From Candidatus Daviesbacteria bacterium RIFCSPHIGHO2_02_FULL_43_12 (GTDB taxonomy: Bacteria; Patescibacteriota; Microgenomatia; Daviesbacterales; UBA10151), in NCBI GenBank assembly GCA_001776775.1, contig MFDD01000014.1:126053-190052 (forward strand): a DNA stretch of 64,000 nt, in the 5' to 3' direction. A program made the position numbers and the translations under genes. Every line of letters starts with the position of its first letter. Positions within the stretch are counted from its first letter, which is position 1. The notes beneath the pieces are model-generated. The model was not told the origin of the DNA, made no database searches, and saw only the letters and a list, made by a program, of their open reading frames with translations. Positions 1 through 28,438 of the stretch are shown here, piece after piece.

Positions 1-257
1 TTATCCAGATGGTCCAAAACCGGTAGCAGCTTAGTCAAAATCCCGGCACTAACCCAAGTCTTTAACTCCGAGCGACCCTCGGCTACCCTTTTCTCTAAAT
101 TCTGATAGTCAGCGACTGCTCTTTTTAGCTGAGAGTTTTGTAACTCAAACTGCTCTTTGAGCTCCGTTAACTCTTTACCTAACTGATCTAGCTGCGCGTT
201 TTCTGTTGTAGCCTGAGAAACTACATCATCTTGTTGTTTTTTATCATCCTTTTTCAT
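1..257 (-). CDS. grpE: GrpE nucleotide exchange factor, N-terminal part; the 3' end runs off the window edge
   Basis: Minus-strand frame from ATG at 257 reads MKKDDKKQQ...ADYQNLEKRVAEGRSELKTWVSAGILTKLLPVLDHLD, which matches the conserved GrpE core (F/YxNxxKR...LLPVxDxL). It lies directly downstream of hrcA, the classic hrcA-grpE order. Confidence 0.7.
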   Translation of the reverse strand, partial: MKKDDKKQQDDVVSQATTENAQLDQLGKELTELKEQFELQNSQLKRAVADYQNLEKRVAEGRSELKTWVSAGILTKLLPVLDHLD

Positions 258-287
258 CTTAATTCTTCATTCTGAACTCTGCATTCG

Positions 288-1016
288 CTACCAACTTCTG
301 CTTGCTTCCTCTATTAATCTACTGGTGTACTTAACATAGGGCATGACTACCGGAAAGTTCAAGCGAGCTGGTCCGATTACTCCCACTACCCCGCCGTGCT
401 CTCCTCTGCTTTTGAATCTACAAAAGACAAAGCTGGTAGGCCCCATATCTTCAAACCCTGTTTCTTCACCAAATAAAACATGTAAAAATTCTTCGCCTTT
501 GGCCTTACCAATGATCTCCTGCAGAGTTGGAAACTCATCAAACAGCGATAAGACAAATCTAGCGACATCAATATCCTCAAACTCAGGAAAGTCCAAAATA
601 TTGGCTGCTCCTGAATAATAGATATCTCCTTCATCGTCAACTGCTAGAGCCAAGACTCGAAGCTTGTTGGCTAAAGCTTTGACCGCCTCTTTGAGCAGAC
701 GCTGCTGATGATACCGCTGCTGCCACATTGACTCTTTCATCGAGACTTCCGCTGAGACGGGCATGTCCTTTTCTTTCATCAATTCGGCAATATACAGCCT
801 ATAGCCCATTGACGTTGGTGACCGACCAGCACTGGTATGCAGCTGCTTTAGATATCCCATCTCGGTTAGCCTGACCATCTCGTGACGAATGGTTGCCGGC
901 GAGACTCCTAGGTTATGTTCTTTTTCAACGTTCTCGGATCCGACAGGCTCTCCGCTTTTAACGTAGATCTCTACGACCGCTTTTAGTAATTGGCGTTGCC
1001 TTTCTGAAAGATCCAT
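288..1016 (-). CDS. hrcA: Heat-inducible transcription repressor HrcA
   Basis: N-terminus MDLSERQRQLLKAVVEIYVKSGEPVGS is the typical HrcA winged-helix start. The size is right (242 aa), a CIRCE element sits upstream and grpE follows. Confidence 0.85.
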   Translation of the reverse strand: MDLSERQRQLLKAVVEIYVKSGEPVGSENVEKEHNLGVSPATIRHEMVRLTEMGYLKQLHTSAGRSPTSMGYRLYIAELMKEKDMPVSAEVSMKESMWQQRYHQQRLLKEAVKALANKLRVLALAVDDEGDIYYSGAANILDFPEFEDIDVARFVLSLFDEFPTLQEIIGKAKGEEFLHVLFGEETGFEDMGPTSFVFCRFKSRGEHGGVVGVIGPARLNFPVVMPYVKYTSRLIEEASRSW

Positions 1017-1076
1017 TAATTTACAAACTGCTTGTGGTGAGCTTGTCGAACCGTTAGCAATAGAAACTCTCCATTG

Positions 1077-1103
1077 CTAGCACTAATTTACCACGAGTGC
1101 TAA
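1077..1103. promoter_or_regulatory. CIRCE operator (HrcA binding site) upstream of hrcA-grpE
   Basis: CTAGCACTA-ATTTACCAC-GAGTGCTAA fits the TTAGCACTC-N9-GAGTGCTAA inverted repeat (7/9 and 9/9 matches). It is about 60 bp upstream of the hrcA start on the minus strand. Confidence 0.65.
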
Positions 1104-1109
1104 CTACTG

Positions 1110-1781
1110 TCAAGAGGGATATTTATTTAAATAGTTAGGTAAGTCTGTCAAGCCATTGAGGATCTTCTTCTCACTTAGTCCTGCCTCTATAAACTGCTCC
1201 TTGGTAGCAAATCCTGAAAGTAATCCGACAAAATCAATTCCTCTGGCTTTGGCGGCTAGAAGATCACTCATTCCATCTCCGATAAACAAAACGTCATTTT
1301 CCTCAATCCCCTTCTTGTCCAGCTCGGAAAAGGCAGGGTCAAAAACTCTTGGGTCAGGTTTATGAAACTGACAGTCATCAGCCATGCAGATAAAAGTAAA
1401 GACTTCTGGAGCATCGGAAAAAAAGCGGCTGACAGTTTTATTAAAACCTCGACGAGGAGAGGAGCTAACCACTCCCATAACCTTATACTGCCGACTAATT
1501 TTCTTGAGAATTTCTATTGCATAAGGAAAGGGCTTAACTACAAAGTCGGCTTGATCGATAAATTTATAGTATTCCTCTTCTATCTTTTCTACTTGGTCTT
1601 CGGGATGAATATCTGCTAAAACTTTTCTTAAAGGATTACCCCAGAGTTGCCTTAACTGATCTTCAATATTCTCCTCTCTGCCTCTAGCTTTCAAGAATTG
1701 ATGGTGGAGAGCTAAGACATCTTTAAATGTCGCCACGATCGTATCATCCCAATCAAAAATCAAAGCCCTGGGTTTGGTCAT
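1110..1781 (-). CDS. HAD-superfamily hydrolase (phosphatase-like)
   Basis: N-terminal LIFDWDDTIV is HAD motif I (DxDxT). C-terminal FIGDGMSDLLAAKARG is HAD motif IV. Confidence 0.6.
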   Translation of the reverse strand: MTKPRALIFDWDDTIVATFKDVLALHHQFLKARGREENIEDQLRQLWGNPLRKVLADIHPEDQVEKIEEEYYKFIDQADFVVKPFPYAIEILKKISRQYKVMGVVSSSPRRGFNKTVSRFFSDAPEVFTFICMADDCQFHKPDPRVFDPAFSELDKKGIEENDVLFIGDGMSDLLAAKARGIDFVGLLSGFATKEQFIEAGLSEKKILNGLTDLPNYLNKYPS

Positions 1782-1897
1782 AAAAGTAGTATACCCTCCA
1801 GGAAATAATTATCAAAGAGTTAAACTAGAACCGGTAAAGGTGATGCCCTTGGGTCGAATAACAACTTGCTTTGGCCCTTTTTCGACATAGCCTGCTC

Positions 1898-2692
1898 TTA
1901 AGAGTGGATAACCTGGGTGCCTTCGGCAATTTCAGAGGCGGTCTGGGCATCCGATTCTGGCATAAAAAGCGCATAGCCAGCACCCATATTAAAAGTGCTA
2001 TACATCTCGAGAAGGGTTTCCGTTTGGGGATAATGCCTCTCAATAAAATCAAATACTGGCTGAGGCTGGGGAACTTGATCAATGATATACCTTAAATCAT
2101 TTCGCTGAGCCCGCATCAGCTTTCTCCAGCCATGTCCGGTAATATGAGCTAGGTAATGAATGTCTACCTTCCCGAGTAACTCTTGAACTAAGGGTGAGTA
2201 TTGCCTCGAAGCCACGAGTAACGCCTCACCATACATCATTCCGTCCGATAGTTTTGTGCGATAGCCTTGCGGTAAAGATCTAGCGATCTGGCGAGAAAGA
2301 GTTAATCCGTTATCATGAATGCCCGTTGAGGGAGCTAAGAGTATACAGTCTCCATCCTCTAACATATGACCATCTCCTGGATAATCATCCTTTGGATGAA
2401 TAATTCCAGTTGCGCTCCCAGCCAGAACAGCTGTTTTAGCATTCACTTGCCCAAATAATGTTTGGCTTTCTCCTCCGCCCCATCTGGCTCCTGTATCTAA
2501 ACAAGCATCAGCCCAACCCTTAGCCAGATCTCTTTGCTTTTCTTCGTCGGCAAACCAAGCAGAACGTCCACTCGCCCAAAAAGCATTAACCGTTAGAGGA
2601 CACGCAGTGGAAGTTGCCAGATCATTTAAAATTGTTGCTACCGTTGAGTAGCCCATGGCATCATAATAAGTTCTTCCAGTGACCCGCCTCAT
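1898..2692 (-). CDS. PurM-like AIR synthase family protein (C-terminal ~265 aa; the N-terminal part lies in another frame upstream, see findings)
   Basis: Segments GDCILLAPSTGIHDNGLTLSRQI, HITGHGWRKLM and FNMGAGYALF align with the PurM motifs [30 protein letters not shown] and FNCGVGM. The in-frame upstream extension carries TEGLGTRNQVA, matching SGTDGVGTKLKLA. Confidence 0.5.
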   Translation of the reverse strand: MRRVTGRTYYDAMGYSTVATILNDLATSTACPLTVNAFWASGRSAWFADEEKQRDLAKGWADACLDTGARWGGGESQTLFGQVNAKTAVLAGSATGIIHPKDDYPGDGHMLEDGDCILLAPSTGIHDNGLTLSRQIARSLPQGYRTKLSDGMMYGEALLVASRQYSPLVQELLGKVDIHYLAHITGHGWRKLMRAQRNDLRYIIDQVPQPQPVFDFIERHYPQTETLLEMYSTFNMGAGYALFMPESDAQTASEIAEGTQVIHS

Positions 2693-2959
2693 GGCATCGG
2701 CAACTTGATTGCGAGTTCCTAATCCTTCGGTTAATGTCGCCAGATAAAATGGTCCTACATCTATTACATATGCAGATTCGCCCCGACTCTCTGGTAGCTC
2801 TCGAAATCCACCGGGATGAGGCCTAGCAGCAGTGAGTCTCTGCTCAACGCTTGAGCATGCAGTTTGGCCGGATCCATTTGGCCATAGTCAACCCCCGATA
2901 GTGTATATGCATCTTTACGCCCACCGCTTGCCATGTGATCAGTATACAAGCTGATAGTA

Positions 2960-3529
2960 TTATTTCAAGAGAGTAATAGTTCGAATTGGACGGGCTGTTT
3001 GATTTGCTTGATCCTTTCCCCAAATAGCGACTTGAGTCACCGGAAAGCTCCAATTTATCCCTGCGCACATCTCTCTTAATTTTTGTTCATTTCTTCTAAA
3101 AGTCCTTTTTTGCTCCTGTCTCGGCATGAAAGCAAACCTGAGATGTGGATGATACTCTAAACGTTCGTCTCGGCAGAAGGTAGAGAGATCCGCTCTTGTA
3201 GCCGTTCGAAAATCTACTAACTGGGGAGGAACTCGAGCCTCCAGATAGGCCATAAAAGGATTGTCTGGTAGCAGATAGCCTAGCCCCGATACCATAATAG
3301 AAGCGCCTCTCAACATTTCCCTATGTCGTTCCAGAGTATTTTGCATTGGCTCCAAGGATCTTTCCCTTATATCTACTGAATTCCAAACTGTTATCCTGGG
3401 CGCGTCCTGAGAATAGCCCAGTCCCGGAACCGCCTGTCTAACTTTATTCTTAAATCTTTCGTAGGCTATAGCTACATCGTCGGGCACAAGCACGCCGATG
3501 AAACAATCGTAAATAATCTTTTCTGGCAT
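2960..3529 (-). CDS. Hypothetical protein (weak 2H-phosphoesterase-like H-x-T/S hints)
   Basis: Long ORF co-directional with its neighbours. It has two weak H-x-[TS]-like elements (PRITVW, HPHLRF). I cannot assign a family confidently. Confidence 0.25.
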   Translation of the reverse strand: MPEKIIYDCFIGVLVPDDVAIAYERFKNKVRQAVPGLGYSQDAPRITVWNSVDIRERSLEPMQNTLERHREMLRGASIMVSGLGYLLPDNPFMAYLEARVPPQLVDFRTATRADLSTFCRDERLEYHPHLRFAFMPRQEQKRTFRRNEQKLREMCAGINWSFPVTQVAIWGKDQANQTARPIRTITLLK

Positions 3530-3588: not shown

Positions 3589-6036
3589 TTATCTTTTGGT
3601 GGATTTTTCTGGAGTGGAATCTTGTTTAGCTGAACTTTCATCTTTTTCAAAGCTTTCTCGGACATTATTGATTGCCTCTTGAATAAATTCATCAGTAAAG
3701 ACTCTATCGGTAAAGATACCTTTATAGACTTGGTCCCCTTTACTGCAGTATTTATCGGAAATCTCGCCCGTTAAATTAGTATGCATAATTTTGCGAATGA
3801 ACTCTAACCGTTCTCGACCATCCATCTTTTTTTGCTGAGAAGCAATTCCGAGTGCAAAACATAATTTTTGATATGCACTCTCTTTAATCATATCCCCTAG
3901 AGCTATTCCTCCAGCTTTGATAAACTCTCCCCTCCTTTTATCTAAGGCGATCTCTGCTACTCCATTGTCGGTGGTAGCGATAATACAGATCGGTTTATGG
4001 TAGGAGTTGACTGCTGTGGCGATATAATATTTCATCTGCATCGGCATATTCGCCTCGTCGTAACCTCCAACTAAGATAGCGGAGATATCATCTGACTCGA
4101 CATAACTTTCAAATTGCTTAATATCCACGGCACTAATACATTCAAAATAAGCCACTTTTTGGTTGAAACCAGTAAACAAATTAAAGGGTCTCTTTTTAAC
4201 TCCATCCAAAATATCAATAATCTCCACATGATGGCTCAGGGTTCCCGCCAAGGGATGTTTTTCAATCGGAGCAAAGGCATTAATACCGTGTTCATCTTCT
4301 TTGACTACCGTCGTTCCGATCATCAGCTTATCCCCAAAAGCCACTTTGACCCCAGCCTTAGCACGGCTTTCTTTGGGCTGCTCTAATCTGGCAAAGATCG
4401 CTTTAATCGATTTAACAAAATTGCGATCAAAGTCGGAAGATCCAAATCCGGGTTTTTGAGCTCCAGTTAAAATGACATCTTTATCAATACCCACCAACAT
4501 GTAGGAGATCGCAGCGGCAGTATAGGCTAGAGTGTCAGTACCATGCAAAACAACTACTCCATCATATTTATCGATGTTTTTAGCTATCACTCTTGCTAGC
4601 TGAGCTCTATAGCGATGCTCCATATTCGAGCTATCAATATTAACTAGCTCTAGATAATCTAGGGAGGTTAGCCGATCAATTCCCTTAAGTTTGACGTCAA
4701 ACAGCTCTTGGAGAGTTTTCTTGGTAGGAGCGAGCACGCCTTCAAGGTTAGGTTCTTGGAAAAAAGTTCCCCCAAGCGAGATCGTTAAAATCTTATATTT
4801 ACTAGTCTTAGATTTACAATAAGTTTTTATATCATTACTAAACGCCTGGTCTTCTTGGGGTTTAAAGAAGCTATCTAAAGTCGGGGCCGTTTTAATAAAT
4901 TGATCCCTGGTGTTATTGACCATATGCCGAGAAAAGGTATCGGGGATCTCTTCAGCCACTGCTGTCAGTAAAAGACGGCTGGCGTCTTGGAGTTTTCTAA
5001 ACTTATCCTCCCCTTGAGCATTGCTTAGGGCATATCTCATTTTTTCGATAGCGGCTGGTTTAACCATTGGCCCCAAAGAGATTGCTCCAGCTTTAACAGC
5101 CACCGCCCCCACATCATAAAGCCCCATGTCCGAGGAACCCTTTTTACAATTAGTGATTACTCCGATTAGTTTGGCTTTTTCATAAACTGCTCTATAGATT
5201 AAAGGAATTAACTTAGCTGGACAGTTTCCAGCCCCAAAAGCTCCGATAATAATCCCTTGGATTGTGTCGTCCGTAACCAGCTGTTCAAAGCTGCCTAAAT
5301 GAGTTTCCGAGACCAGGTCAAAATAGGCGACATTTACGTTGGTGTTATAGGAGTAGTTGACCTGAGACGGTTTACGAGGTACTGCATGAGAGCTAATCTT
5401 GACGGTCCATCCAACATCCCCAATTTTTGGAACTCGAGGAGAGAGGATTGGATTATTGGAACGAGTTCCCCGGTTAGTTGCTACCGTCGCTCGAGTTAAA
5501 GAGTCATCGAAAAGGATCGCTACTTCTCCAACTGATGGAGCGTTGACATCTTTAGCGCCCATTAAAGAAACTTTGATGGCGTTAGGTAAGTTGAGCCGAA
5601 AGTCTGAGTCTGGATCCCGGGCACTTTGGGTTGCTCCGGTAAAAATAACCGGTGCCCCTAAACCTCGTAGAGCAAAGGCCGTCGCGCAAGTGTAATAGGC
5701 TGCCACATCCATCCCTCCGATAACTACAAAACCATCATAGTCATTTTGGTAATCTTTAATGGTTTTAGCGATATCGGCAATTTCAAAAGAGGTGAGATCT
5801 GCACTATCTTTTTGACTAAGAGCCAAACAGTCAATCCGACCCGCTTCGTCTTTGAGATACGGAACCAAATCTAAGGACTCTCGGAGATTAAAGTTAAGAT
5901 CTTCGGTCGGACGTTCTATCCCCAAGCCTCCCAGAGAAAGAACCAATACCTTGCCGTCTTTATGCGGATTCTCCGAATAAGTAAAAATTTTATTAGTCAT
6001 AACTGGGTTGTGAGTACTAAAATTAAAAAGTCCCAT
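3589..6036 (-). CDS. 815-aa protein with two tandem asparaginase/GatD-like domains (probably non-canonical)
   Basis: The C-terminal half carries VVLHGTDTLAYTAAAISYML (the asparaginase HGTDTM-type motif), VILTGAQKP (TGAMRP-like) and ILVGGYDEANMP (GxGxGN-P-like). The N-terminal half shows the same order in degenerate form (LSLGGLGI; VVIGGMDVAAYYTCATAF; VIFTGATQSARDPDSD; IIIGAFGAGNCP). The nucleophilic Thr of TGGTIAG is not conserved in either copy. Confidence 0.5.
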   Translation of the reverse strand: MGLFNFSTHNPVMTNKIFTYSENPHKDGKVLVLSLGGLGIERPTEDLNFNLRESLDLVPYLKDEAGRIDCLALSQKDSADLTSFEIADIAKTIKDYQNDYDGFVVIGGMDVAAYYTCATAFALRGLGAPVIFTGATQSARDPDSDFRLNLPNAIKVSLMGAKDVNAPSVGEVAILFDDSLTRATVATNRGTRSNNPILSPRVPKIGDVGWTVKISSHAVPRKPSQVNYSYNTNVNVAYFDLVSETHLGSFEQLVTDDTIQGIIIGAFGAGNCPAKLIPLIYRAVYEKAKLIGVITNCKKGSSDMGLYDVGAVAVKAGAISLGPMVKPAAIEKMRYALSNAQGEDKFRKLQDASRLLLTAVAEEIPDTFSRHMVNNTRDQFIKTAPTLDSFFKPQEDQAFSNDIKTYCKSKTSKYKILTISLGGTFFQEPNLEGVLAPTKKTLQELFDVKLKGIDRLTSLDYLELVNIDSSNMEHRYRAQLARVIAKNIDKYDGVVVLHGTDTLAYTAAAISYMLVGIDKDVILTGAQKPGFGSSDFDRNFVKSIKAIFARLEQPKESRAKAGVKVAFGDKLMIGTTVVKEDEHGINAFAPIEKHPLAGTLSHHVEIIDILDGVKKRPFNLFTGFNQKVAYFECISAVDIKQFESYVESDDISAILVGGYDEANMPMQMKYYIATAVNSYHKPICIIATTDNGVAEIALDKRRGEFIKAGGIALGDMIKESAYQKLCFALGIASQQKKMDGRERLEFIRKIMHTNLTGEISDKYCSKGDQVYKGIFTDRVFTDEFIQEAINNVRESFEKDESSAKQDSTPEKSTKR

Positions 6037-6086
6037 TAATTCTAGGTTATCCTAAAATACTGGAAATTTCTAGTTGTACTCTCCTT

Positions 6087-7661
6087 TCATTTATAAGACT
6101 CATCTAAGCCTAGATTTTCTTCTATAACTCGGTCAATTAAAGCTTCCCCAGGGGAGAAGAGGATTAACCTTCTTCTTTGGGACAGAGTTGTTTCGAAATA
6201 AGGTTCGGTAAATTTTTTAGCGATAAACTCTGGATCAGCTGAGGCTACTGGAGCCCAGAGAGACGGGGCTTTCGATCGATTCTTTTTCCACTCCTCAACC
6301 ATCTTAGCAAGTTCAGTTGCACCATTGACAACCACAACCGTAGGTTTTCTTAAAGCCTCTCTACCCTCTTCGGGCTCCCCCCAAACTAGATCGTCAAATT
6401 TATCTCGTAAATGGCGTCTTAATATCACCTCAACGAGCTGAAAGTAGCGAGCAATGTCTGGAAGGGTAGTTTTAGCGTCCTTAATTAGACCTTCCATGGT
6501 TTTTTGTGTTTCATTAGAAACAGGAACGGCTCTGTCTAAGATTCTCCCAGCAAAAGCCGATGTTTTAGGATCGTAATTGGAAGAAAGACCAAGCAAAACG
6601 ACCTGTGCAACCTTTATGTCGTAATCGGTTAGTCCTTTTAGAAACTTTTCTGTCGTCTCTCTTCTTCCTCTATAGTGAATGCCCTCAACCCCTCTTAAGG
6701 TGTCGCCTAATACTCCATCTCCAGCTGTAGAAGAGACAACCCAGGTTTCATTAGACCCTGCATGCTGGGCCGCCTTTTTAGCTATCTGCTGCTGCAGTAG
6801 TAAACCATATTCTCCAGTATCAATGGTTCTTGCCATAAATGGAATTGACTCTGAAATAACTGCTAAATCTGATCTATCTCCATAATATTCACCCACCTCT
6901 ATTAGCCTCTCCCGAGATCTATCTTTTAGTTTTAAGGCTAGTTCGTCTGGATCTTTGGCATTGTCTCCTCCTAAAATTCTAATCGCTGAACGCCGGTAAA
7001 TCCTTCTTTTCTCTGAACCAGGTTGACTGATTAGAAATGTAGGTGGTTGATCGACTCCGTAATAGCTTCTTAAATAGCTTCTGATATCAAACTCCACATA
7101 CATCCGCGGATCTCCTGAGCTGGTTAAGACAAAGTCGTCTCGAGGATAATCTGCACCTTGCACTAAGTCCATATCAAAAATATGATGGGGTTCAACTCTT
7201 ATAGAGGATCCTGCGGCGGTTACTTTCTCTACTTCAGCAATGAATGGATTAATAGTACCGTATTGAAGACTGAACTCTTCTAGGTTAGCTAAAGCTAAAC
7301 CTTCTGGGTCTATCCCAAGCTCCAGGGCAAGCTTTTTAACGTCTACTTTACGATCTTGTCTTAAGTGAGCAATGACCAGCTCCTCTTGTGGGGTTGTATA
7401 GGCAATAGATTTGATAGGACGCCAGGGTTCCACTCCCTCTTGTCTTAAGTAAACTGCCCGTTTTTGATTATCTTTACCGGAACTTGATTCACCTTGATAC
7501 TGACCAAAAAAATAATGGATCCGGTGTTGAAGTCTTAAAGCGAAAAAAGCTGCAGACACTTTGTGGAATTTGTCTACTATTTTATTATCGGGTGTTAAAC
7601 CGATTTTCTCCGGTCGAAAATTTCCGGTTGGTAAATATTGCTCAGTGATTTCCCTTTGCAT
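6087..7661 (-). CDS. 524-aa protein with an N-terminal YbaK/ProX-like aminoacyl-tRNA deacylase domain and a large unknown C-terminal region
   Basis: ELVIAHLRQDRKVDVKKLALELG...LQYGTINPFIA resembles the YbaK/ProRS-editing fold (LAVAV...LDLKKVAKALG...GGISPLG). The remainder has no family I can name. Confidence 0.4.
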   Translation of the reverse strand: MQREITEQYLPTGNFRPEKIGLTPDNKIVDKFHKVSAAFFALRLQHRIHYFFGQYQGESSSGKDNQKRAVYLRQEGVEPWRPIKSIAYTTPQEELVIAHLRQDRKVDVKKLALELGIDPEGLALANLEEFSLQYGTINPFIAEVEKVTAAGSSIRVEPHHIFDMDLVQGADYPRDDFVLTSSGDPRMYVEFDIRSYLRSYYGVDQPPTFLISQPGSEKRRIYRRSAIRILGGDNAKDPDELALKLKDRSRERLIEVGEYYGDRSDLAVISESIPFMARTIDTGEYGLLLQQQIAKKAAQHAGSNETWVVSSTAGDGVLGDTLRGVEGIHYRGRRETTEKFLKGLTDYDIKVAQVVLLGLSSNYDPKTSAFAGRILDRAVPVSNETQKTMEGLIKDAKTTLPDIARYFQLVEVILRRHLRDKFDDLVWGEPEEGREALRKPTVVVVNGATELAKMVEEWKKNRSKAPSLWAPVASADPEFIAKKFTEPYFETTLSQRRRLILFSPGEALIDRVIEENLGLDESYK

Positions 7662-7711
7662 AAAATTAAAAACAAGTCCTGACGACTTGTGGCAGAAATC
7701 TTATAGTTTTC

Positions 7712-7740
7712 TTGACTTAATGTAAAATTTATTGTATTAT
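7712..7740 (+). promoter_or_regulatory. Sigma-70-like promoter (TTGACT -17 bp- TATTAT) in an AT-rich divergent intergenic region
   Basis: TTGACT at 7712-7717 and TATTAT at 7735-7740, with a 17-bp spacer, about 100 bp upstream of the + strand gene at 7839. The region 7662-7838 is very AT-rich and lies between divergent genes. Confidence 0.35.
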
Positions 7741-7838
7741 CTTGCAGATTGTAATATTTACTTACGTTTATCCAAGTTAGCAATAGTTATATTTGGATTT
7801 AATGTAATAATATGCAACTAGATATATAAATCTAACAA

Positions 7839-8495
7839 ATGATTAAAGCGGCTGATGCGGTATTACAACTCCTTAAAAACGACGAGATCGCCCTGGAATC
7901 TTTTCGGGAAAGTATTCTTAACTTAAGTGCTTATGCAACTAAGATTCAGAAAAGTGTTGAGAAATTAACTTATAAACCGGTTAAAAAGGGAACTATTGTG
8001 GTAGCCTTATCCCGGCTTTCCAAATCAGACTTAAAGGCTTCCCAAAAACCCGAGATAAAAATTAATCATTTAAGCACCCGCTCGCCGGTCATCTCTTATA
8101 CTTACCAAAAAACTTTCGACACTCAAAGACGGGTTTCTACGCTTAACCCTTATCTCGTGACTCCAACGGACTTATTTGGAATTATCGAAGGAGAAAGTGA
8201 GATCATCATCATTGTGTCCGAGAAAGCGGTCGATTTAGTTAAAGACCATATCGGAGTTATCCCAAAAAGAGAAGTTGCCAATCTGGTTGGGCTAACAGTC
8301 CAGTTCTCCGATAAAATACCCAGCCAAAAGGTTTTACAATCGCTTTTAAGCTTACTCTCAACACATCAGGTTAATATTGAAAATATTCTACCAGGAATGA
8401 ACGAGATCTCCTTTATCATTGCTCAAAACAGCCTGGAGCAGGCAATCTCAGCTCTAAATTTATATACTATTAAAAAGGAGTCAGCTGGTGGTTAA
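7839..8495 (+). CDS. ACT-domain-like protein (resembles aspartokinase regulatory domains)
   Basis: ANLVGLTVQFSDKIP...VNIENILPGMNEISFIIAQN...AISAL follows the aspartokinase C-terminal ACT pattern (ISVVG.GM...INI.MIS.SE..ISFVV). It has no kinase domain. Confidence 0.35.
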   Translation: MIKAADAVLQLLKNDEIALESFRESILNLSAYATKIQKSVEKLTYKPVKKGTIVVALSRLSKSDLKASQKPEIKINHLSTRSPVISYTYQKTFDTQRRVSTLNPYLVTPTDLFGIIEGESEIIIIVSEKAVDLVKDHIGVIPKREVANLVGLTVQFSDKIPSQKVLQSLLSLLSTHQVNIENILPGMNEISFIIAQNSLEQAISALNLYTIKKESAGG

Positions 8496-8967
8496 TCCTA
8501 AGACGCCTGATTCAATATTAGTGATATTAACCGGAGGACGGATTGATTCTGTTTGGGACGGCGGGATTGATGAAATTGTGGTGGCCAAACATTCAGTGAT
8601 CCCGGAGTATTTTAAGGAACTAAAGACTGAGGGATTAGAGTTTAAAGAAGTTTGTATGAAAGATTCTAGAGCCCTAGTGCTGGAAGATCGTATAGCTATT
8701 TTGCAGGCAATTGAACAAAGTCATACTAATAAGATCCTGATTACTCATGGAACTCATACGCTACCAGACACTATTGAGTTTCTAAACAAACATCTCAAAG
8801 ATAAGTCAAAGACTATTGTCTTTACCGGATCATCAACACCATTAAAAGACTTTAAATCCTCTGATGCAGCTTTGAATCTAGGATATGCCCTAGCTAAAGT
8901 TGAAGATTTACCGGCTGGACTGTACTTTTGTGCAAATAACCAGACTACTCCTGCTGAAAGAATCTGA
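8488..8967 (+). CDS. Stand-alone asparaginase/GatD N-terminal-domain-like protein (159 aa), GTG start
   Basis: ILVILTGGRIDSV (TGGTIAG-like), ILITHGTHTLPDTIEFL (HGTDTM-like) and IVFTGSSTPL (TGAMRP-like). A GGAG RBS lies 8 nt upstream of the GTG. It overlaps the upstream gene by 8 bp. Confidence 0.45.
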   Translation: MVNPKTPDSILVILTGGRIDSVWDGGIDEIVVAKHSVIPEYFKELKTEGLEFKEVCMKDSRALVLEDRIAILQAIEQSHTNKILITHGTHTLPDTIEFLNKHLKDKSKTIVFTGSSTPLKDFKSSDAALNLGYALAKVEDLPAGLYFCANNQTTPAERI

Positions 8968-9003
8968 TTGCTAGATTAAATCTTTTGTCCTATAATCCTG
9001 AAC

Positions 9004-9483
9004 ATGGCGTATTCCGGAGAAAGCTTGGTTAAAACTTCAAAACAAGTTGTCGCTCAATTAAGATCTTTAGGGATATCCACACCGAGCTTGGAAGAACCAG
9101 TCGGACAGTTCCTCTGCTCTATTGCCGCTGATGCTGCCAACTCAACCCTGGCATTTTACTTTAGAGTCAACCAAGATGGTACAAGACCTAACTTTTTAGT
9201 AGCAATATCCGACCCACCTGTTGATATATCTAACTGGAGTCAGTGGATTAATAAGTATCGTAGGGACAGATCCCAGCTTCTACTCGCATCTCATGCCCAG
9301 CTGAGATATAGCTTGCAACCTCACCTACTCTGTAGCTTGGACACTCCTCGTGGAGGAGAGCTTGATAGTATCAGACAGGCTATGCAAAGAATACAACCTG
9401 GAGGAATCTATCGAGCTTGGCCATATACTAGATACGAGCTCCTTGCTTTCCTAGACCTTCACCCTTCTCAAAAGATTCACTGA
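9004..9483 (+). CDS. Hypothetical protein
   Basis: 159-aa ORF co-directional with and immediately downstream of the asparaginase-like gene. No recognisable motif. Confidence 0.3.
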   Translation: MAYSGESLVKTSKQVVAQLRSLGISTPSLEEPVGQFLCSIAADAANSTLAFYFRVNQDGTRPNFLVAISDPPVDISNWSQWINKYRRDRSQLLLASHAQLRYSLQPHLLCSLDTPRGGELDSIRQAMQRIQPGGIYRAWPYTRYELLAFLDLHPSQKIH

Positions 9484-9527
9484 AATCCTTGGTTGATTTT
9501 CATATCAAATCACTAGTAGAAGAGGGG

Positions 9528-11354
9528 TTAGCTTTTTAAAATACTTAAGAAAGCTTCTTGGGGGATCTCCACTCGACCGATCATTTTCATCTTTTTCTTA
9601 CCCTTTTTCTGCTTATCTAATAACTTGTCTTTTCTCGTTCTATCTCCGCCATACATTCCAGCAGTGACATCTTTTCTAAAGGGACTGACCGTTTCTCTGG
9701 CGATAATACTCCCCCCAATGGCAGCTTGAACAGCGATCGCAAAGTTTTGTCTGGGTAAAACCTCTTTTAGTTTCTCTACCATCCTTCTGCCGGTCGCTTC
9801 TGCCCGTTCTTTGACTAAAATCATCGAAAGCGCATCGACTTTTTCTCCGCCGACCATAATATCTACCCTGACTGCCTCAACATCTCTAAACTCTAAAAAG
9901 TCCCAGTCTAATGAGGCAAACCCGGAAGACACTGATTTGAGCTTGTCATAAAAGTCGGTGATCATTTCCGACAGAGGCATTTCATATAGCAGCTCAACCT
10001 GCATTCCGTAATGTTGCATATTCACAAATTTTCCTCTTTTGTCCTGAATCAATTCCATGATTGTCCCGATATATGGCTGAGGGGTAAAGACCGTCAGTTT
10101 AACCCAGGGCTCTTTAAGGTCTTTAATTCCACTGCTCACATCCAACTCTGAAGGGCTATGAATAGATACACCAGCTTGCATATATTCAACTGAGGGAGCG
10201 GTGGCCAATAGATCGACATTAAATTCTCCGGATAGCCTCTCCTGCACCACTTCAGCATGAAGCAGCCCCAAAAACCCACAGCGAAACCCAGACCCCAGCG
10301 CAGCTGATTGTTCGGCGACATAAGAAAAAGCTGGGTCATTGAGTTTAAACCTAGACAGAGCTTCTTTTAATTCAAAATATTCCGAAGAATCCAGCGGATA
10401 AAGCCCCACATAAACCATCGGCTTTACTTCTTTATACCCAGGCAAAGGTTCAACTTCGTTTATGGTTAATGGTTTATGGTTTATGGTTCCTGTTTCTGCC
10501 GATACACCATCTACCATATACGATAAACTAGTAATAGTGTCGCCTACCCTAACCAAATCAGAAGTCTTAATTCCGGTGGCGATATATCCGATATCACCGG
10601 CTTTTAACCCATCATTAGGGGTCAGTTTAGGCGAGAAAAACCCGGTTTCTAAGACCTGCCCTGTGGCTTTAGTTCCCAAAAAAGTGAGGGGGGTTTGATT
10701 GGGTGGCGTTTGGCCCTCGACAATTTTGACCTGGGCTACTACTCCTTTATAAGTATCAAAAAAAGAATCGAAGATCAAAGCCCTTAGAGGTTTGTCTACC
10801 TCCTGTTTGGGGGCTGGAACTCTTTCGATAATCGCCCGCAGAATCTCTGCTACCCCTAGACCGCTTTTGCCAGAGGCTAAAATAATCTCTGATTCCAGAA
10901 ATCCGAAAGTATCCACTAATTCTTTGGTACATTTTTCAACATTGGCATTAACCAAATCGACTTTGTTAATCACCGGAATAATCACTAAGTTTTGCTCCAG
11001 GGCAGCTAAACCATGCGACAGAGTCTGGGCCTGAATACCTTGGGTCGCATCAACCAGCATGATCGCTCCCTCTACGGCGGCCAGCGCCCGGGAGACTTCG
11101 TAGGAAAAATCGACATGGCCGGGAGTATCTATTAAGTTTAGAGTGTAGAGTTCGGAGTTCAGAGTGTACGATAATCTGACTGGGGCGAGCTTGATGGTAA
11201 TTCCTCGCTCTCTTTCAAGATCTAGCGAATCGAGCATCTGTTCCCCCATTTTATCTTTGTTGATAGCCCCTGTAATTTCGAGAAACCGATCAGCCAAGGT
11301 TGACTTACCGTGATCGACATGAGCAATGATCGAAAAATTTCGGATATTAGCCAT
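9528..11354 (-). CDS. lepA: Translation elongation factor 4 (LepA)
   Basis: MANIRNFSIIAHVDHGKSTLADR is the LepA/EF4 G1 region. DTPGH, NKVD and the C-terminal LepA-specific tail are present. I placed the start at the internal ATG (11354) because the ORF's 12-aa N-terminal extension is atypical. Confidence 0.9.
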   Translation of the reverse strand: MANIRNFSIIAHVDHGKSTLADRFLEITGAINKDKMGEQMLDSLDLERERGITIKLAPVRLSYTLNSELYTLNLIDTPGHVDFSYEVSRALAAVEGAIMLVDATQGIQAQTLSHGLAALEQNLVIIPVINKVDLVNANVEKCTKELVDTFGFLESEIILASGKSGLGVAEILRAIIERVPAPKQEVDKPLRALIFDSFFDTYKGVVAQVKIVEGQTPPNQTPLTFLGTKATGQVLETGFFSPKLTPNDGLKAGDIGYIATGIKTSDLVRVGDTITSLSYMVDGVSAETGTINHKPLTINEVEPLPGYKEVKPMVYVGLYPLDSSEYFELKEALSRFKLNDPAFSYVAEQSAALGSGFRCGFLGLLHAEVVQERLSGEFNVDLLATAPSVEYMQAGVSIHSPSELDVSSGIKDLKEPWVKLTVFTPQPYIGTIMELIQDKRGKFVNMQHYGMQVELLYEMPLSEMITDFYDKLKSVSSGFASLDWDFLEFRDVEAVRVDIMVGGEKVDALSMILVKERAEATGRRMVEKLKEVLPRQNFAIAVQAAIGGSIIARETVSPFRKDVTAGMYGGDRTRKDKLLDKQKKGKKKMKMIGRVEIPQEAFLSILKS

Positions 11355-24294: not shown

Positions 24295-27200
24295 TCAGAT
24301 CATCAATCCTCGTAGCTCACAATATTCGCAGGTCGGTTCTTGACACCGACGATCCCAGAAATCGAGATTAATAATTTCTTTAGCTACTTGCAAAATCATG
24401 GTTTCTAAAGTTGCGACCTGCTCGGAGGTTATCTCAAAACTTTCACTACGAATTTTACCCTTGACATCCGACTCGACAAAATCTATTACCCCTTCTTTCA
24501 TCTCCATTTTCCCTTGATAGTATTTATCAATTAGTAATTTATAAAAAACCAGCTGTCTTAAATAGTCTCCATTACTATCTCCAGTTTTTCCCTCTATCTC
24601 TCCTCTTGACCGAGGCTTACCTGTTTTAAAATCAAAGACTCTGACATGTCCTTTGGAATCTATTTTTTCAATCATATCGACAACTCCATTAATTATGACG
24701 TCGTCAGTTAGTCTAACTCCTTTAATTACCACTTCACTTTGCACTCCTTTATTCCAACGGGTAATTCTTTGGTCAAAGTAATTTTGTAATACTTTTTGAC
24801 CCTTCTTAAGCAGATCTTCAAAATCTTTTTCAGCTAGAGGCTCCCTTGCTAGGGCGTCGATAAATCCTTGAATGAGCAAGGTGTTGGAAGCGTCACCCTG
24901 GTTGAGATGATTAATATAGTTTTGCAGGGCTTTATGAATGGCTGTACCGAACATTCTGCTACGATCTTTAATCTCTGGTAAGAGCAGCAGGTTTCGATAA
25001 AAAAATCTCCATGGGCATTTTAAATAATTATTTAATCCACTAACTGACAAGCCTCTTTCCAGAAAAATCTCCTTAAAGAACTCCATATCCTTGACTCTTG
25101 ACTCTTGACTCTTGACTCTTGGTCTGAAAATTTGCTCTTTCCGAGAAGAAAAATCTTCTTGAAACGAAGTTGTATCCTCTATTCTCTTATACTTATCCTC
25201 TATTTCTCCTATAAACTGTGCGGGTAGCTGCTCTTTTCCCTCTAGGGATTTCGAGGAATAGGAGATAGTTACTCCCTTTTTGGCTCGAGTTAAGGCCACA
25301 TAAAACAACCGTCTCTCATCTTCATTTTGTTCAATGTCTATTCCTAATTTAAGCTTGACTCCAAAATATTCCCAGGGAATAGCAATACCCGAAGACCTTC
25401 TTCTCATGTTTCCCCAGTGACCATTAAAGCAATTAATAATATATACATATTCAAACTCCAAGCCTTTGGATTTATGAGCAGTCATCAGTCTGACGTAATC
25501 TTGTCGAGGGGTTTGGGTGGGACATTTAATTAAGATATCGTGTTCTTTGAGCAAATTTAAGTAAGCCAAAAAGTCTGTTAAATTAAACTGAGGATTTCTC
25601 ATCACTTGTAACTTAATCTCTTCAAAAAGAATAGTTAGCTTTTCGATAATCTCTATGGAACTAGGTTGAGTTAAAATGTAATCAAGAAGTTTTGAATCAT
25701 TGAGCACCGATACAAATAGAGTTTCGAGGTTATCGTTTTTACTTTGAATCTGCCAATTTTCCAGCAACTTATAAAACGTGGTTATTCCTTCTTTTTCTAT
25801 CCCAACCAAATTCAAAATCTCGGATTTAGTAACTATTTCAAAAACAGATAGCTTACTCGCTCTGGCATACTTCATTAATTTATACAGATCTAGGGGTTTA
25901 ATTCCTAAAAAATCAAGATGCAGCGCTGGTATAAGATAGGCATCTTCGCCGTAAAAAGCCACTGCTTCAAGAAGCATTAAAAACTTTCTAACAGATGCGT
26001 CAGCAAAAATATTTTGGTCGGCTTCAACACTATACTTGACTCCTGCCTGCTCTAAGACACTGGCTAAAATAATTAAATCCCGGTTATTTCGGGCTAGTAC
26101 TGCGATCTCTTTTGGAGCAATTCCAGCAGTTATTTTTTCTCCAATATCTTTGGCATAAAAGTAATACTCGCTGTAATAGTCGGTAAACTCTATAAGTCTG
26201 ATTGGCTCTTCCGGGTACTTGCTACTTGACTGCAAGGCAACTCTTTCCGGCATTAAATCTGAGATAATATTTATTTTTATAACCGATCCCGCAGCATCCA
26301 GAATAGTCTGAGTAGAACGATAATTAAAGTTTAGATTAATTAAGATTGCTTTAGGATAGAGCTTTTTGAAATATAAAAAATTCTCTAGGGATGCTCCTTG
26401 AAATCTGTAGATCGCTTGTTTTTCATCTCCCACTACAAAGAGATTAGGATTTTCATAAAAGTTGCACAGTAGCTCAACCAATTTATTTTGAGCAGTGTTG
26501 GTATCTTGATGTTCGTCGACTAAAATATATTGATATCTCTCCTGCAGACGAAGCAGCAATTCTTTGTTAGTAGATAGAGCTTTAACTACTTCCAGTAACA
26601 TATCATTAAAGTCGTAGAGTTTTTTTGTTTGCAGTGCTTGTTGATATGCTGTATATATAATAAGTAGCTCTTTTTGTTTATTTATATCTCGCAAAGTCTC
26701 TGAGTACTTGCCTTTCATCTGCCCTTTGTAGGCCCCCTTTTCGTGATACAGATCTTTGATAATTGCGAAATCTTTTTCTTGAGCGATAATCCCCTCAGCA
26801 AAATCCGTCACCGAGACTCCTTCTTTTTTTAAATCATTAATCGCCGATAAACTATATTTTAGATAATAGAGAGGATCTCCGAAGGGTTTAAGTAGCTCTA
26901 GCGAAGATTGATTGATGATCTCTTCTAGTAGTTGGATCTGTTCGATCTCCGTCATACTAGTAGCGGAAATCAGGTGCGGGAAATCTTCAGGATTATGTTT
27001 GATTACCTCACTTCCAAAAGAATGAAAGGTGGTAATCTCCACTTTGTAGGCCAAAGTACCAATAATTTCGGCTAAACGCTTGCGCATGGCTAGCACCGCT
27101 GAATCAGTAAAGGTTAGAGCTAAAATATTATCTGGATTAACCTGAGTTTGCAGTAATATATTGGCAATCCGCAGCGTCAGGATCTGAGTTTTGCCAGTCC

Positions 27201-27321
27201 CCGGACCAGCTATCACCATTACTGGACCTTCGATAGAGTCAACTGCCTGTTTCTGTTGTGGGTTCAAGTTCCTGTAAGCTTTTCTGAATTCAAAGGTTTC
27301 CATCTGTTTGGGGGTCTTCAA
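24295..27321 (-). CDS. UvrD-like helicase fused to a C-terminal PD-(D/E)XK (Cas4/AddB-like, FeS) nuclease domain
   Basis: N-terminal VMVIAGPGTGKTQILTLRIANIL and VDEHQDTN are helicase motifs. The C-terminal GVVDMIEKID...VFDFKTGK and YLRQLVFYKLL (QxxxY) are nuclease motifs. Cys ligands CPWRF...CQEPTCEYC fit a 4Fe-4S cluster. Confidence 0.65.
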   Translation of the reverse strand: MKTPKQMETFEFRKAYRNLNPQQKQAVDSIEGPVMVIAGPGTGKTQILTLRIANILLQTQVNPDNILALTFTDSAVLAMRKRLAEIIGTLAYKVEITTFHSFGSEVIKHNPEDFPHLISATSMTEIEQIQLLEEIINQSSLELLKPFGDPLYYLKYSLSAINDLKKEGVSVTDFAEGIIAQEKDFAIIKDLYHEKGAYKGQMKGKYSETLRDINKQKELLIIYTAYQQALQTKKLYDFNDMLLEVVKALSTNKELLLRLQERYQYILVDEHQDTNTAQNKLVELLCNFYENPNLFVVGDEKQAIYRFQGASLENFLYFKKLYPKAILINLNFNYRSTQTILDAAGSVIKINIISDLMPERVALQSSSKYPEEPIRLIEFTDYYSEYYFYAKDIGEKITAGIAPKEIAVLARNNRDLIILASVLEQAGVKYSVEADQNIFADASVRKFLMLLEAVAFYGEDAYLIPALHLDFLGIKPLDLYKLMKYARASKLSVFEIVTKSEILNLVGIEKEGITTFYKLLENWQIQSKNDNLETLFVSVLNDSKLLDYILTQPSSIEIIEKLTILFEEIKLQVMRNPQFNLTDFLAYLNLLKEHDILIKCPTQTPRQDYVRLMTAHKSKGLEFEYVYIINCFNGHWGNMRRRSSGIAIPWEYFGVKLKLGIDIEQNEDERRLFYVALTRAKKGVTISYSSKSLEGKEQLPAQFIGEIEDKYKRIEDTTSFQEDFSSRKEQIFRPRVKSQESRVKDMEFFKEIFLERGLSVSGLNNYLKCPWRFFYRNLLLLPEIKDRSRMFGTAIHKALQNYINHLNQGDASNTLLIQGFIDALAREPLAEKDFEDLLKKGQKVLQNYFDQRITRWNKGVQSEVVIKGVRLTDDVIINGVVDMIEKIDSKGHVRVFDFKTGKPRSRGEIEGKTGDSNGDYLRQLVFYKLLIDKYYQGKMEMKEGVIDFVESDVKGKIRSESFEITSEQVATLETMILQVAKEIINLDFWDRRCQEPTCEYCELRGLMI

Positions 27322-28438
27322 TCACTAATTCAATTTCTTCAAACTCTAAACTTTTTATATCTGCCATTGGTTCATCAATAAGTCCTGACAAAGATCCGTG
27401 CATTGAAAGAGTATTATTTTTTAACCTTTCAATTTCTTTGTCTCTTTGGGCCCAAATTTTCTGCATGACCATTTTTTCTTTATCTAAGGTCTGCTGCATT
27501 TTAGAATAGGTTTCCAGCATTGAGTCTATTCTTTGAGCAAATTCAGAACTGGTTATATATCTATAAAGAGATTCTATTTTTTCATTTTTTCCTACAGACA
27601 GAGCTTTTGTTTGTGCTATATCCAGTAAACTTTTGCGTAAGATGAACGCAACCTGTAGCACACAATCGAAACTTGTTATATACACGCCATCTTTTTGAGT
27701 AAAGAACTTAGCACCAGAGGGCAAAATTGTTGAGACAATTACCGATACATCTGCTTTTGCCTCTCTCATATCTTCTTTTAATTTAACAATCCATTCCTCC
27801 GTAAATGCCTTTGTCCTTTTGCTCTCCCAGATAATCTTGCCCGCATCTCTTCCGATCTGATCTTTTACAAGTTGCACTAAATCCGCGCCTCTTACACCTT
27901 TCCCAACTTCGCTTAATTCATCAATAGGGAATTCGCGTTTTAATATTTCCATAAGCTCCAGCTCCATTACCTCACCTTGAAGCTGTTGAGAACCAACTGA
28001 GGCTTTTCTTTGAGCCTCATCCAAGGATTTTTTTAGAGATTCTATCAGCTGATCTTTTTCTTTCTCCTTTAAATGAAACTTTTCAGTGACCTCCGTTTCT
28101 GTTTTCTCCTGGATTTTTTTTCTTTCTTCATCGATTTGCCTTTGCATTTCCAGCTCCAAATTTTTTTCTTTTTCTTCTAATTCCTGAGCTTTCTTTCTTA
28201 AAATTAACTCGTTTTCTCTAAACGTCTCAATCTCTTTCTTGTTTTTTGATAATTGCTCCTGAAGTTCTAATTTTTCTTTTTGGGATTGCTCCGATAGTTG
28301 TAGTTTTAGAGATATGTATTTTTGATTATATTCATCCCGCAGGTCTCCTTTGACCGATTCCTCAATCTGATGACGTAGCACCTCGTCAACTGAGATTTGA
28401 GTATGGCACTTTGGGCACTGAATAGATGAAACGCTCAT
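27290..28438 (-). CDS. Zn-ribbon / long coiled-coil / C-terminal PD-(D/E)XK-like (DUF2130-like) protein
   Basis: N-terminal CPKCHTQ zinc ribbon. About 130 aa of E/K/Q-rich coiled coil. The C-terminal GADLVQLV...GKIIWESKRTK shows a D...ExK motif. It overlaps the helicase-nuclease gene by 32 bp. Confidence 0.45.
   Translation of the reverse strand: MSVSSIQCPKCHTQISVDEVLRHQIEESVKGDLRDEYNQKYISLKLQLSEQSQKEKLELQEQLSKNKKEIETFRENELILRKKAQELEEKEKNLELEMQRQIDEERKKIQEKTETEVTEKFHLKEKEKDQLIESLKKSLDEAQRKASVGSQQLQGEVMELELMEILKREFPIDELSEVGKGVRGADLVQLVKDQIGRDAGKIIWESKRTKAFTEEWIVKLKEDMREAKADVSVIVSTILPSGAKFFTQKDGVYITSFDCVLQVAFILRKSLLDIAQTKALSVGKNEKIESLYRYITSSEFAQRIDSMLETYSKMQQTLDKEKMVMQKIWAQRDKEIERLKNNTLSMHGSLSGLIDEPMADIKSLEFEEIELVIEDPQTDGNL

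Follow-up and report, generated by a model that had tools for sequence, protein, structure and literature searches.

Asparaginases have been studied heavily as leukaemia drugs and as food enzymes. The type I (cytosolic) class 1 asparaginases, for example AnsA of E. coli and V. cholerae (2p2d, 2ocd) and the Pyrococcus/Thermococcus enzymes solved as 1wls, 4q0m and 9ufq, are built from an N- and a C-domain, and GatD of the archaeal Glu-tRNA(Gln) amidotransferase GatDE (1zq1, 2d6f), which is also dimeric, has the same fold and catalytic residues. A shorter architecture, consisting of the N-domain only, was described in 2024 with RrA from Rhodospirillum rubrum (8uoo, 8up6), the prototype of the short-chain asparaginases (PMC10949315). 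Two further folds are of importance here: that of the YbaK/ProX/ProXp-ala/INS deacylases (1dbu, 1wdv, 5vxb), a trans-editing family with a signature of a Lys (K45/K279) and a GXXXP loop (bioRxiv 10.1101/2020.09.11.293571), and that of the aspartate racemases (1jfl, 5wxy, 3ojc), which belong to the Asp/Glu/hydantoin racemase superfamily. We analyzed a stretch of 64,000 nucleotides (nt), below called the window, from Candidatus Daviesbacteria bacterium RIFCSPHIGHO2_02_FULL_43_12 (assembly GCA_001776775.1, contig MFDD01000014.1, positions 126,053 to 190,052), in which five neighboring genes bring these folds together. They encode a tandem asparaginase of 815 amino acids (aa), a 524-aa protein that joins a YbaK-like to a racemase-like domain, a 218-aa protein and two 159-aa proteins, of which the one starting at position 8488 is a short-chain asparaginase homologue.

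The tandem enzyme is a previously unreported form of a known kind of enzyme. We found no literature on tandem asparaginases, on asparaginases in phage defence or defence systems or on fusions of aspartate racemase and YbaK folds, and no published description of a partnership between asparaginases and YbaK-racemase proteins. Our preferred reading of the locus, which we hold with somewhat less than even confidence, is that two independent families have been joined here into an Asn/Asp-processing module.

The tandem asparaginase

According to Pfam (E 9e-59 and 1e-20), the 815-aa protein (identical to A2631_04610) is made up of two asparaginase units, both complete with N- and C-domain; PF00710 and PF17763 each score well over their cut-offs. 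Run on the whole protein, the type I asparaginase model TIGR00519 yields 250.6 bits, slightly below its cut-off of 260.5, with the C-terminal unit (C-unit) as the best-matching stretch. Identity between the two units is only 29%, and they differ in their nearest solved relatives, which are bacterial AnsA (2ocd, 2p2d) for the N-terminal unit (N-unit) and the archaeal Pyrococcus/Thermococcus asparaginases and GatD for the C-unit. When 19 members of the family (56-80% identity to the window protein) are aligned, the C-unit shows an invariant catalytic set consisting of SLGGT424, HGTDT498-502 (with T500 and D501) and K579. Thr424, the pair Thr500-Asp501 and Lys579 align with the GGT motif, the HGTDT motif and the catalytic Lys of the archaeal asparaginase 9ufq, respectively. 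No candidate for the mobile-loop Tyr could be identified in the C-unit.

The N-unit, by contrast, lacks the catalytic Thr/Thr-Asp/Lys set of the class 1 type I enzymes, while the fold is present. At the GGT position the window protein reads SLGGL (GGAG in the family), at the HGTDT position GGMDV (AGTDT in the family), and the position of the catalytic Lys is occupied by Asn; the family consensus of the three segments is GGAGIP / AGTDT / NRGTRSNNP. The N-unit nevertheless retains D77-S78 and D110, which are invariant in the family alignment. Their counterparts in RrA and EcAII bind Asp through its alpha-amino and alpha-carboxylate groups (PMC10949315).

Compared with the type I asparaginases, with which the C-unit shares the full Thr/Thr-Asp/Lys set and the protein the absence of a signal peptide, the 815-aa protein differs in fusing two units in one chain, one of them dead. 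It also combines an AnsA-like bacterial unit with a unit of archaeal type, and its family is confined to bacteria of the candidate phyla radiation (CPR) and to DPANN archaea. On the basis of these motifs the protein is best read as a covalent heterodimer with one live and one dead site, in which two type I-like asparaginase units form a pseudo-heterodimer within one chain. Each chain would then possess one hydrolytic site, converting L-Asn to L-Asp and NH3, and one non-catalytic site with a presumably structural or ligand-binding role.

A search for relatives of the tandem protein yielded 50 clusters at E<=1e-30. Identities of 58-82% were recorded for the full-length members, which represent many CPR lineages and include one named Pacearchaeota. 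A pattern scan with one genome per species located 13 loci of the family (L001-L013; 57-71% identity) in CPR bacteria, in DPANN archaea (Nanoarchaeota, Pacearchaeota, Forterrea) and in two bins labelled Methanosarcinales and proteobacterium. Because identity is so high across two domains of life, the tandem asparaginase has probably been transferred horizontally between CPR and DPANN organisms; the sequences suggest a recent cross-domain gene transfer among ultra-small symbionts. A viral origin of the family was rejected, as no relative was found on viral contigs. Neither in these 13 loci nor on three further contigs (16 other loci in total) did we find a homologue of the 524-aa protein, the 218-aa protein or the second 159-aa protein. 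Since the gene stands on its own in these 16 loci, the tandem asparaginase can be regarded as a self-contained, mobile single-gene unit. A regulator of amino-acid type is encoded divergently upstream of it in several cases, of the Lrp/AsnC type in four archaeal loci and of the TrmB type in two CPR loci, and another asparaginase-family gene adjoins it in L001, L010, L011 (true GatD), L012 and L013; the remaining neighbors are translation and housekeeping genes. The neighbor in L001, a Nanoarchaeota contig, is a 424-aa degenerate asparaginase-like gene (8681-9955, plus strand; motifs SAGGA and YGTDD) directly upstream of the tandem gene, which by its motifs is another putatively dead paralogue beside the tandem family.

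The resemblance of the C-unit to GatD bears on the proposal of the initial annotation that the locus encodes a transamidation module. In such a tRNA-dependent amidotransferase the asparaginase units would act as GatD-like ammonia donors while the YbaK-like domain holds the aminoacyl-tRNA end. The C-unit indeed matches GatD models (205 bits) and the GatD structures 1zq1 and 2d6f, true GatD genes adjoin the tandem gene in two archaeal loci, the YbaK fold usually binds aminoacyl-tRNA ends, and in one locus (L016) relatives of the 524-aa protein and its partner are divergent from gatC-gatA-x-gatB. However, the GatD scores lie far below the cut-offs (TIGR02153, 205 versus 324; NF003217, 196 versus 310) and also below the type I asparaginase score of 250.6. 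Furthermore, the GatD_N domain (PF18195), which the true GatD of L010 possesses, was not found in the 815-aa protein, and no GatE/GatB domain was detected among the cluster genes and ten large open reading frames (ORFs) scanned elsewhere in the window. In archaeal loci where the tandem protein is encoded too, true GatD has a gene of its own; the 815-aa family is mostly found as a solo gene, and YbaK-family proteins are known for hydrolysis and not for amidation. We rejected membership of the 815-aa protein in the GatD family on scores, domain content and partner, and consider the amidotransferase explanation extremely unlikely.

The YbaK-racemase protein and its asparaginase partners

The 524-aa protein (identical to A2631_04615) is encoded on the same strand as the tandem asparaginase, whose gene follows after a gap of 50 nt. 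Its AlphaFold model (predicted local distance difference test (pLDDT) score 83.2, predicted template modelling score 0.74) consists of two domains: a YbaK/ProX fold in the N-terminal part, as the initial annotation had recognized, and an Asp/Glu-racemase fold with two lobes in the C-terminal 300 residues, which had been overlooked. The window protein matches the Pfam family tRNA_edit with 20.8 bits and thus falls under the cut-off. A profile search of 1.84 billion proteins retrieved ~14 full-length representatives of the family, and the three of them that were scanned with Pfam all exceed the tRNA_edit cut-off (31.6-48 bits). Lys84 (in IKS) and the ends of the loop G135-T-I-N-P139 (G135 and P139) are invariant in the family alignment. 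When the profile is aligned to the editing domain of prolyl-tRNA synthetase (ProRS) in 2j3l, these three residues fall on its KS and G...P positions. The signature His of the trans-editing family could not be placed in the 524-aa protein. In contrast to the known YbaK/ProX deacylases the domain is fused to a racemase fold and is encoded beside asparaginases instead of ProRS; no linked tRNA gene or aminoacyl-tRNA synthetase was found in the window.

The racemase-like domain lacks both catalytic Cys residues of the aspartate racemases (motifs CNT and GCTE), the first being replaced by Ser311 and the second by Ala (GATEL). In a broad family of ~450-aa proteins (at least 206 clusters), some of which the Joint Genome Institute annotates as aspartate/glutamate racemase/YbaK, the first Cys is kept (ACNTT) and the second is Leu. 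Other polar motifs, namely GD-x-S, SA-F/Y and a Lys, are common to both subfamilies, which argues that the domain is not merely decaying; in the 524-aa protein they would form a conserved polar pocket of GDRS, SAF and Lys397. Members of the 524-aa family are only 27-39% identical, yet many polar residues are invariant in both domains. Some YbaK-racemase proteins bear C-terminal extras (P0076, P0218, P0118), either a PP2C phosphatase or a domain resembling the pyridoxal phosphate (PLP)-dependent beta-hydroxyaspartate dehydratase. On viral contigs and plasmids, the family yielded only partial racemase matches, on one viral contig and one plasmid.

The state of the Cys residues is relevant for a possible D-Asp/D-Asn pathway, in which the asparaginase and the racemase-like domain would interconvert Asn, L-Asp and D-Asp and the YbaK-like domain would strip D-Asp misloaded on tRNA. 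Such a pathway would fit the first Cys retained in the broad family, the canonical Asp/Glu racemases, DAO-type oxidase and class IV (D-amino-acid-type) aminotransferase that adjoin this family, and the fusion of one member to the dehydratase-like PLP domain. With Leu at the second position in the broad family and Ser and Ala in the window subfamily, however, two-base racemisation is unlikely here, and the window cluster contains no D-amino-acid enzyme. We therefore regard this pathway as very unlikely for the present locus.

In order to characterize the surroundings of the 524-aa relatives, we scanned metagenomes with the family and obtained five informative loci. An asparaginase-family gene lies directly upstream on the same strand in all of them; it encodes a short-chain asparaginase of 138-167 aa in L015, L016, L018 and L019 and a 418-aa asparaginase-like protein in L017. 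(A shared subfamily of the latter and the 424-aa gene of L001 was considered and rejected, as the two have no similarity.) The broad family gives the same picture, with an asparaginase-family gene directly adjacent in 8/8 loci (L020-L025, L029, L030), so that the adjacency holds for 13/13 loci overall. Judged by their motifs, the partners are either a live short-chain enzyme or two long asparaginases. Most bacteria encode few class 1 asparaginases or none at all (PMC10949315), and for this reason the adjacency is not attributable to chance. In addition, the 1081-aa protein P0111 has an asparaginase N-domain at residues 442-626 and a YbaK-like segment at 850-973 in one chain with an AAA_16 ATPase and is, as far as domain matches can tell, a Rosetta-stone fusion of the asparaginase and YbaK-like folds.

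The wider neighborhoods of the relatives show an Asp/Asn/Glu/D-amino-acid flavor: across the loci we met aspartokinase-homoserine dehydrogenase, aspartate-semialdehyde dehydrogenase and glutamate dehydrogenase, further gatCAB and glutamine synthetase, and also canonical racemases, DAO, a PLP decarboxylase, S51 peptidases and a class IV aminotransferase. In L016, a gatC-gatA-(143-aa ORF)-gatB operon (7-3429, minus strand) is divergent from the pair of short-chain asparaginase and YbaK-racemase genes, and a HepT-like toxin gene is located just 3′ of the pair.

Seven of the eight broad-family loci, which stem from diverse environmental bacteria, carry a set of four genes (e.g. L023:1493-8422 and L021:524-7374). 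The first encodes a P-loop ATPase (AAA_35/STAND-like, the latter standing for signal transduction ATPases with numerous domains) with a helix-turn-helix (HTH) or TIR N-terminus, the second a fusion of ATPase and asparaginase (741-781 aa), the third a second asparaginase (496-542 aa) with a C-terminal extension of ~150 aa and the fourth the YbaK-racemase protein. Both asparaginases of the set retain the catalytic motifs. In the eighth locus, L030, the set is reduced to genes for a TIR protein, an asparaginase, a YbaK-racemase protein and DAO. The four-gene set is not contained in PADLOC, and we found no description of it in the literature. In L023 it is immediately followed by a free-standing YbaK-type (tRNA_edit) gene of 181 aa (8466-9011, minus strand), and a Tn7-like transposition module (TnsA, TnsB-like, TniB) is located ~3 kb beyond that gene.

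The composition of this set raises the possibility that the Daviesbacteria cluster is what is left, in reduced form, of a conflict system of the anti-phage or abortive-infection type. In such a system, two asparaginases and the YbaK-racemase protein would answer to STAND-like ATPases and TIR proteins and bring about Asn depletion or tRNA discharge on infection. Apart from the conservation of the set and its reduced version, this explanation can draw on the TIR protein of L021, which matches ThsB (E 2e-42), and on neighbors in relatives such as the Tn7-like transposon, a RES toxin, HepT and a group II intron reverse transcriptase. The window, however, lacks ATPase and TIR genes, and the cluster is flanked by housekeeping genes (hrcA, lepA, murJ). 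Neither the five proteins of the cluster nor the asparaginases and YbaK-racemase proteins encoded in L021 and L022 matched a model of PADLOC-DB 2.0, the only hit being the TIR-ATPase of L021 (ThsB); a known defence system was rejected on this ground. Beyond the partial racemase matches mentioned above, viral contigs and plasmids yielded no member of either family, many of the neighbors are metabolic enzymes for Asp, Glu or D-amino acids, and the HTH-ATPase proteins may equally be ordinary transcription regulators. We consider a conflict-system remnant at this locus unlikely.

The short-chain homologue and a possible partner replacement

The 159-aa protein at 8488 contains one asparaginase N-domain (Pfam E 3e-16) and no C-domain, and its best solved relatives are the RrA structures 8up6 and 8uoo (E 3e-12, compared with E 5e-7 for the next group). 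It aligns over its full length with homologues of 138-167 aa and thus has the size and architecture of a short-chain asparaginase. In the RrA family Thr16 is strictly conserved, and Lys19, Thr87-Asp88 and Lys158 are key residues (PMC10949315). The window copy differs at all of these sites except for the Thr of the pair: Thr16 is replaced by Arg18, Lys19 by Ser21 and Asp88 by His90 (Thr89-His90 in HGTHT), and the C-terminus stops before the Lys158 segment. The homologues encoded beside 524-like genes, on the other hand, retain GGTID-K, HGTDT and the C-terminal Lys.

Together with the two units of the tandem protein, this N-domain makes up the three asparaginase folds within ~6 kb that the initial annotation had reported from five ORFs, all of which we located at the same coordinates. 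Its statement that no copy keeps the nucleophile is incorrect for the C-unit, in which the GGT, HGTDT and Lys positions align with archaeal structures. Nor does each copy retain HGTDT, as the readings of the N-unit and of the protein at 8488 demonstrate, and a GxGxGN-P motif in each copy is incompatible with the missing C-domain of the latter.

The residues lost from the 8488 homologue are retained by its relatives beside 524-like genes. In this genome, therefore, the canonical partner of the 524-aa protein appears to have decayed; and as the tandem asparaginase is encoded immediately 3′ of the 524-aa gene, we infer a replacement of the partner.

The same losses can be accommodated by a chance neighborhood subject to decay, in which only the tandem asparaginase would be functional, scavenging Asp and ammonia, and the 524-aa, 218-aa and both 159-aa genes would be unrelated or degenerating. 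The solitary occurrence of the 815-aa family in other loci, the loss of four catalytic positions in the protein at 8488 and of the racemase Cys residues in the 524-aa protein, and the failure to detect relatives of the 218-aa protein and the 159-aa protein at 9004 in the fetched loci agree with this explanation. Against it, the many invariant polar residues of the 524-aa family at 27-39% identity argue for selection, a second and a third asparaginase-fold gene beside the 524-aa gene are unlikely to be there by chance in view of the 13/13 adjacency, and all ORFs of the cluster are intact. We regard it as rather unlikely.

Remaining genes and features of the locus

The positions of all features are given in Table 1. 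The 218-aa gene and the two 159-aa genes are divergent from the 524/815 pair, and the 218-aa gene overlaps the 159-aa gene at 8488 by 8 nt. The 218-aa protein shows sub-threshold matches to ACT_9 (17 bits) and ACT_7 (16.3 bits; cut-off 27) at E 0.005-0.009 for residues 164-207, and a single-sequence AlphaFold 2 model with a pLDDT of only 37.6 displays an ACT-compatible beta-alpha-beta-beta-alpha pattern in residues 149-216. The PDB sequence search returned no solved relative of this protein. For the 159-aa protein at 9004 we obtained no Pfam or NCBIfam match; the idea that it represents the missing C-domain of a split asparaginase was rejected, as hhalign against the family profile gave a probability of 0.2%. 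No homologue of either protein occurs in any fetched locus, and both are lineage-specific additions.

Table 1. Positions of the genes, domains and intergenic region of the locus within the window
Feature	Position	Strand	Basis
Tandem class 1 (type I-like) asparaginase, 815 aa, N1-C1-N2-C2	3589..6036	-	Pfam; family alignment
N-terminal asparaginase unit, ~residues 28-350, predicted catalytically dead	4987..5955	-	Alignment to 2ocd; family consensus
C-terminal asparaginase unit, ~residues 415-760, catalytic set intact	3757..4794	-	Family alignment; 9ufq; TIGR00519
524-aa protein, YbaK/ProX-like and Asp/Glu-racemase-like domains	6087..7661	-	50 nt upstream of 815-aa gene
YbaK/ProX-fold domain, ~residues 45-205	7047..7529	-	Invariant columns; profile alignment to 2j3l
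Asp/Glu-racemase-fold domain, ~residues 222-520	6102..6998	-	Both catalytic Cys replaced
Divergent intergenic region, 524-aa gene to 218-aa gene	7662..7838	.	Promoter-like hexamers
218-aa protein, possible C-terminal ACT-like module	7839..8495	+	Sub-threshold ACT matches
Short-chain (RrA-like) asparaginase homologue, 159 aa, predicted catalytically dead	8488..8967	+	RrA structure matches
Lineage-specific 159-aa protein without assigned family	9004..9483	+	No Pfam/NCBIfam match

Promoter-like hexamers are present on both strands of the divergent intergenic region (+7712-7740 and -7726-7698), their number being no higher than in shuffled sequence; likewise, the counts of the promoter and terminator scan do not exceed those of shuffled sequence. 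No Rfam family and no tRNA gene was found within the 64-kb window. The flanks of the cluster encode, besides hrcA, lepA and murJ, a HAD hydrolase and a PurM-like protein. The latter (264 aa, AIRS and AIRS_C, 1898-2692, minus strand) covers only positions 73-318 of the PurM model, owing to either an N-terminal truncation or a mis-called start. A 189-aa ORF (2960-3529, minus strand) is located on the same strand as the 815-aa gene, 59 nt 3′ of it, and may be co-transcribed with it; Pfam assigns it to no family, its only NCBIfam match, to PRK13679, is weak (E 0.014), and homologues were not found in the fetched loci. At 24295-28438 (minus strand) the window carries a gene for a 1008-aa AddA-like UvrD helicase with a PD-(D/E)XK nuclease domain directly 3′ of that for a DUF2130 protein (382 aa); the G+C content is lower in this stretch (0.37-0.38).

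Discussion

In the Asn/Asp-processing module that we tentatively favor, the 524-aa protein would be a conserved partner of asparaginase-family enzymes, and in the Daviesbacteria genome the tandem asparaginase would take the partner position of the decayed short-chain copy. The weakest steps of this scheme are the biochemical ones: the asparaginase would yield Asp, the cysteine-less racemase-fold domain may bind Asp or Asn, and the YbaK-like domain, with the family Lys and GxxxP loop, may hydrolyse an aminoacyl ester, for example that of Asp- or Asn-tRNA. Ester hydrolysis of this kind would couple the free Asn/Asp pool to charged tRNA.

Several observations weigh against this module. The adjacency of the 815-aa gene to a YbaK-racemase gene could be fortuitous here, given that no such gene lies near the 815-aa family in the 16 other loci. 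The partner loci number 13, and several of them are on short metagenome contigs. The racemase-like domain is devoid of both catalytic Cys residues and its role is a guess. Finally, the STAND-like ATPases and TIR domains of the relatives, which are absent here, fit a conflict system better than plain metabolism.

With respect to the initial annotation, its suggestion of a pseudo-enzyme complex holds for the N-unit, the protein at 8488 and the racemase-like domain, all of which lack catalytic residues, and not for the C-unit with its complete catalytic set. The link that it drew between asparaginase and YbaK-like folds is borne out and is no chance juxtaposition (5/5 close and 8/8 broad loci, and the fusion P0111), while the five genes as a whole are not a conserved set, as the 16 other loci of the 815-aa family demonstrate.

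A more far-reaching explanation would combine these observations. The pair of asparaginase and YbaK-racemase protein would be the core of an undescribed system acting on tRNA-esterified Asn/Asp or on the Asn pool; its STAND/TIR versions would be a conflict system of a new kind that arrests translation by Asn removal or tRNA discharge, and the Daviesbacteria cluster would be a stripped-down derivative rich in pseudo-enzymes, in which a fused double asparaginase replaces the usual partners. On the present sequence comparisons we rate this as rather unlikely.

A live and a dead site in one chain would offer a natural model in which to study how asparaginase activity depends on the dimer interface and on the second site. 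That CPR bacteria and DPANN archaea share the family at 56-82% identity suggests that these ultra-small symbionts have exchanged genes. The strict pairing of asparaginases with YbaK-racemase proteins, together with the fusions to STAND-type ATPases, places the asparaginase and trans-editing folds in a setting of which we found no description. Should the pair act on aminoacyl-tRNA, or should the ATPase/TIR versions prove to be immune systems, the result would be a new effector chemistry, based on the depletion of an amino acid or of tRNA charge.

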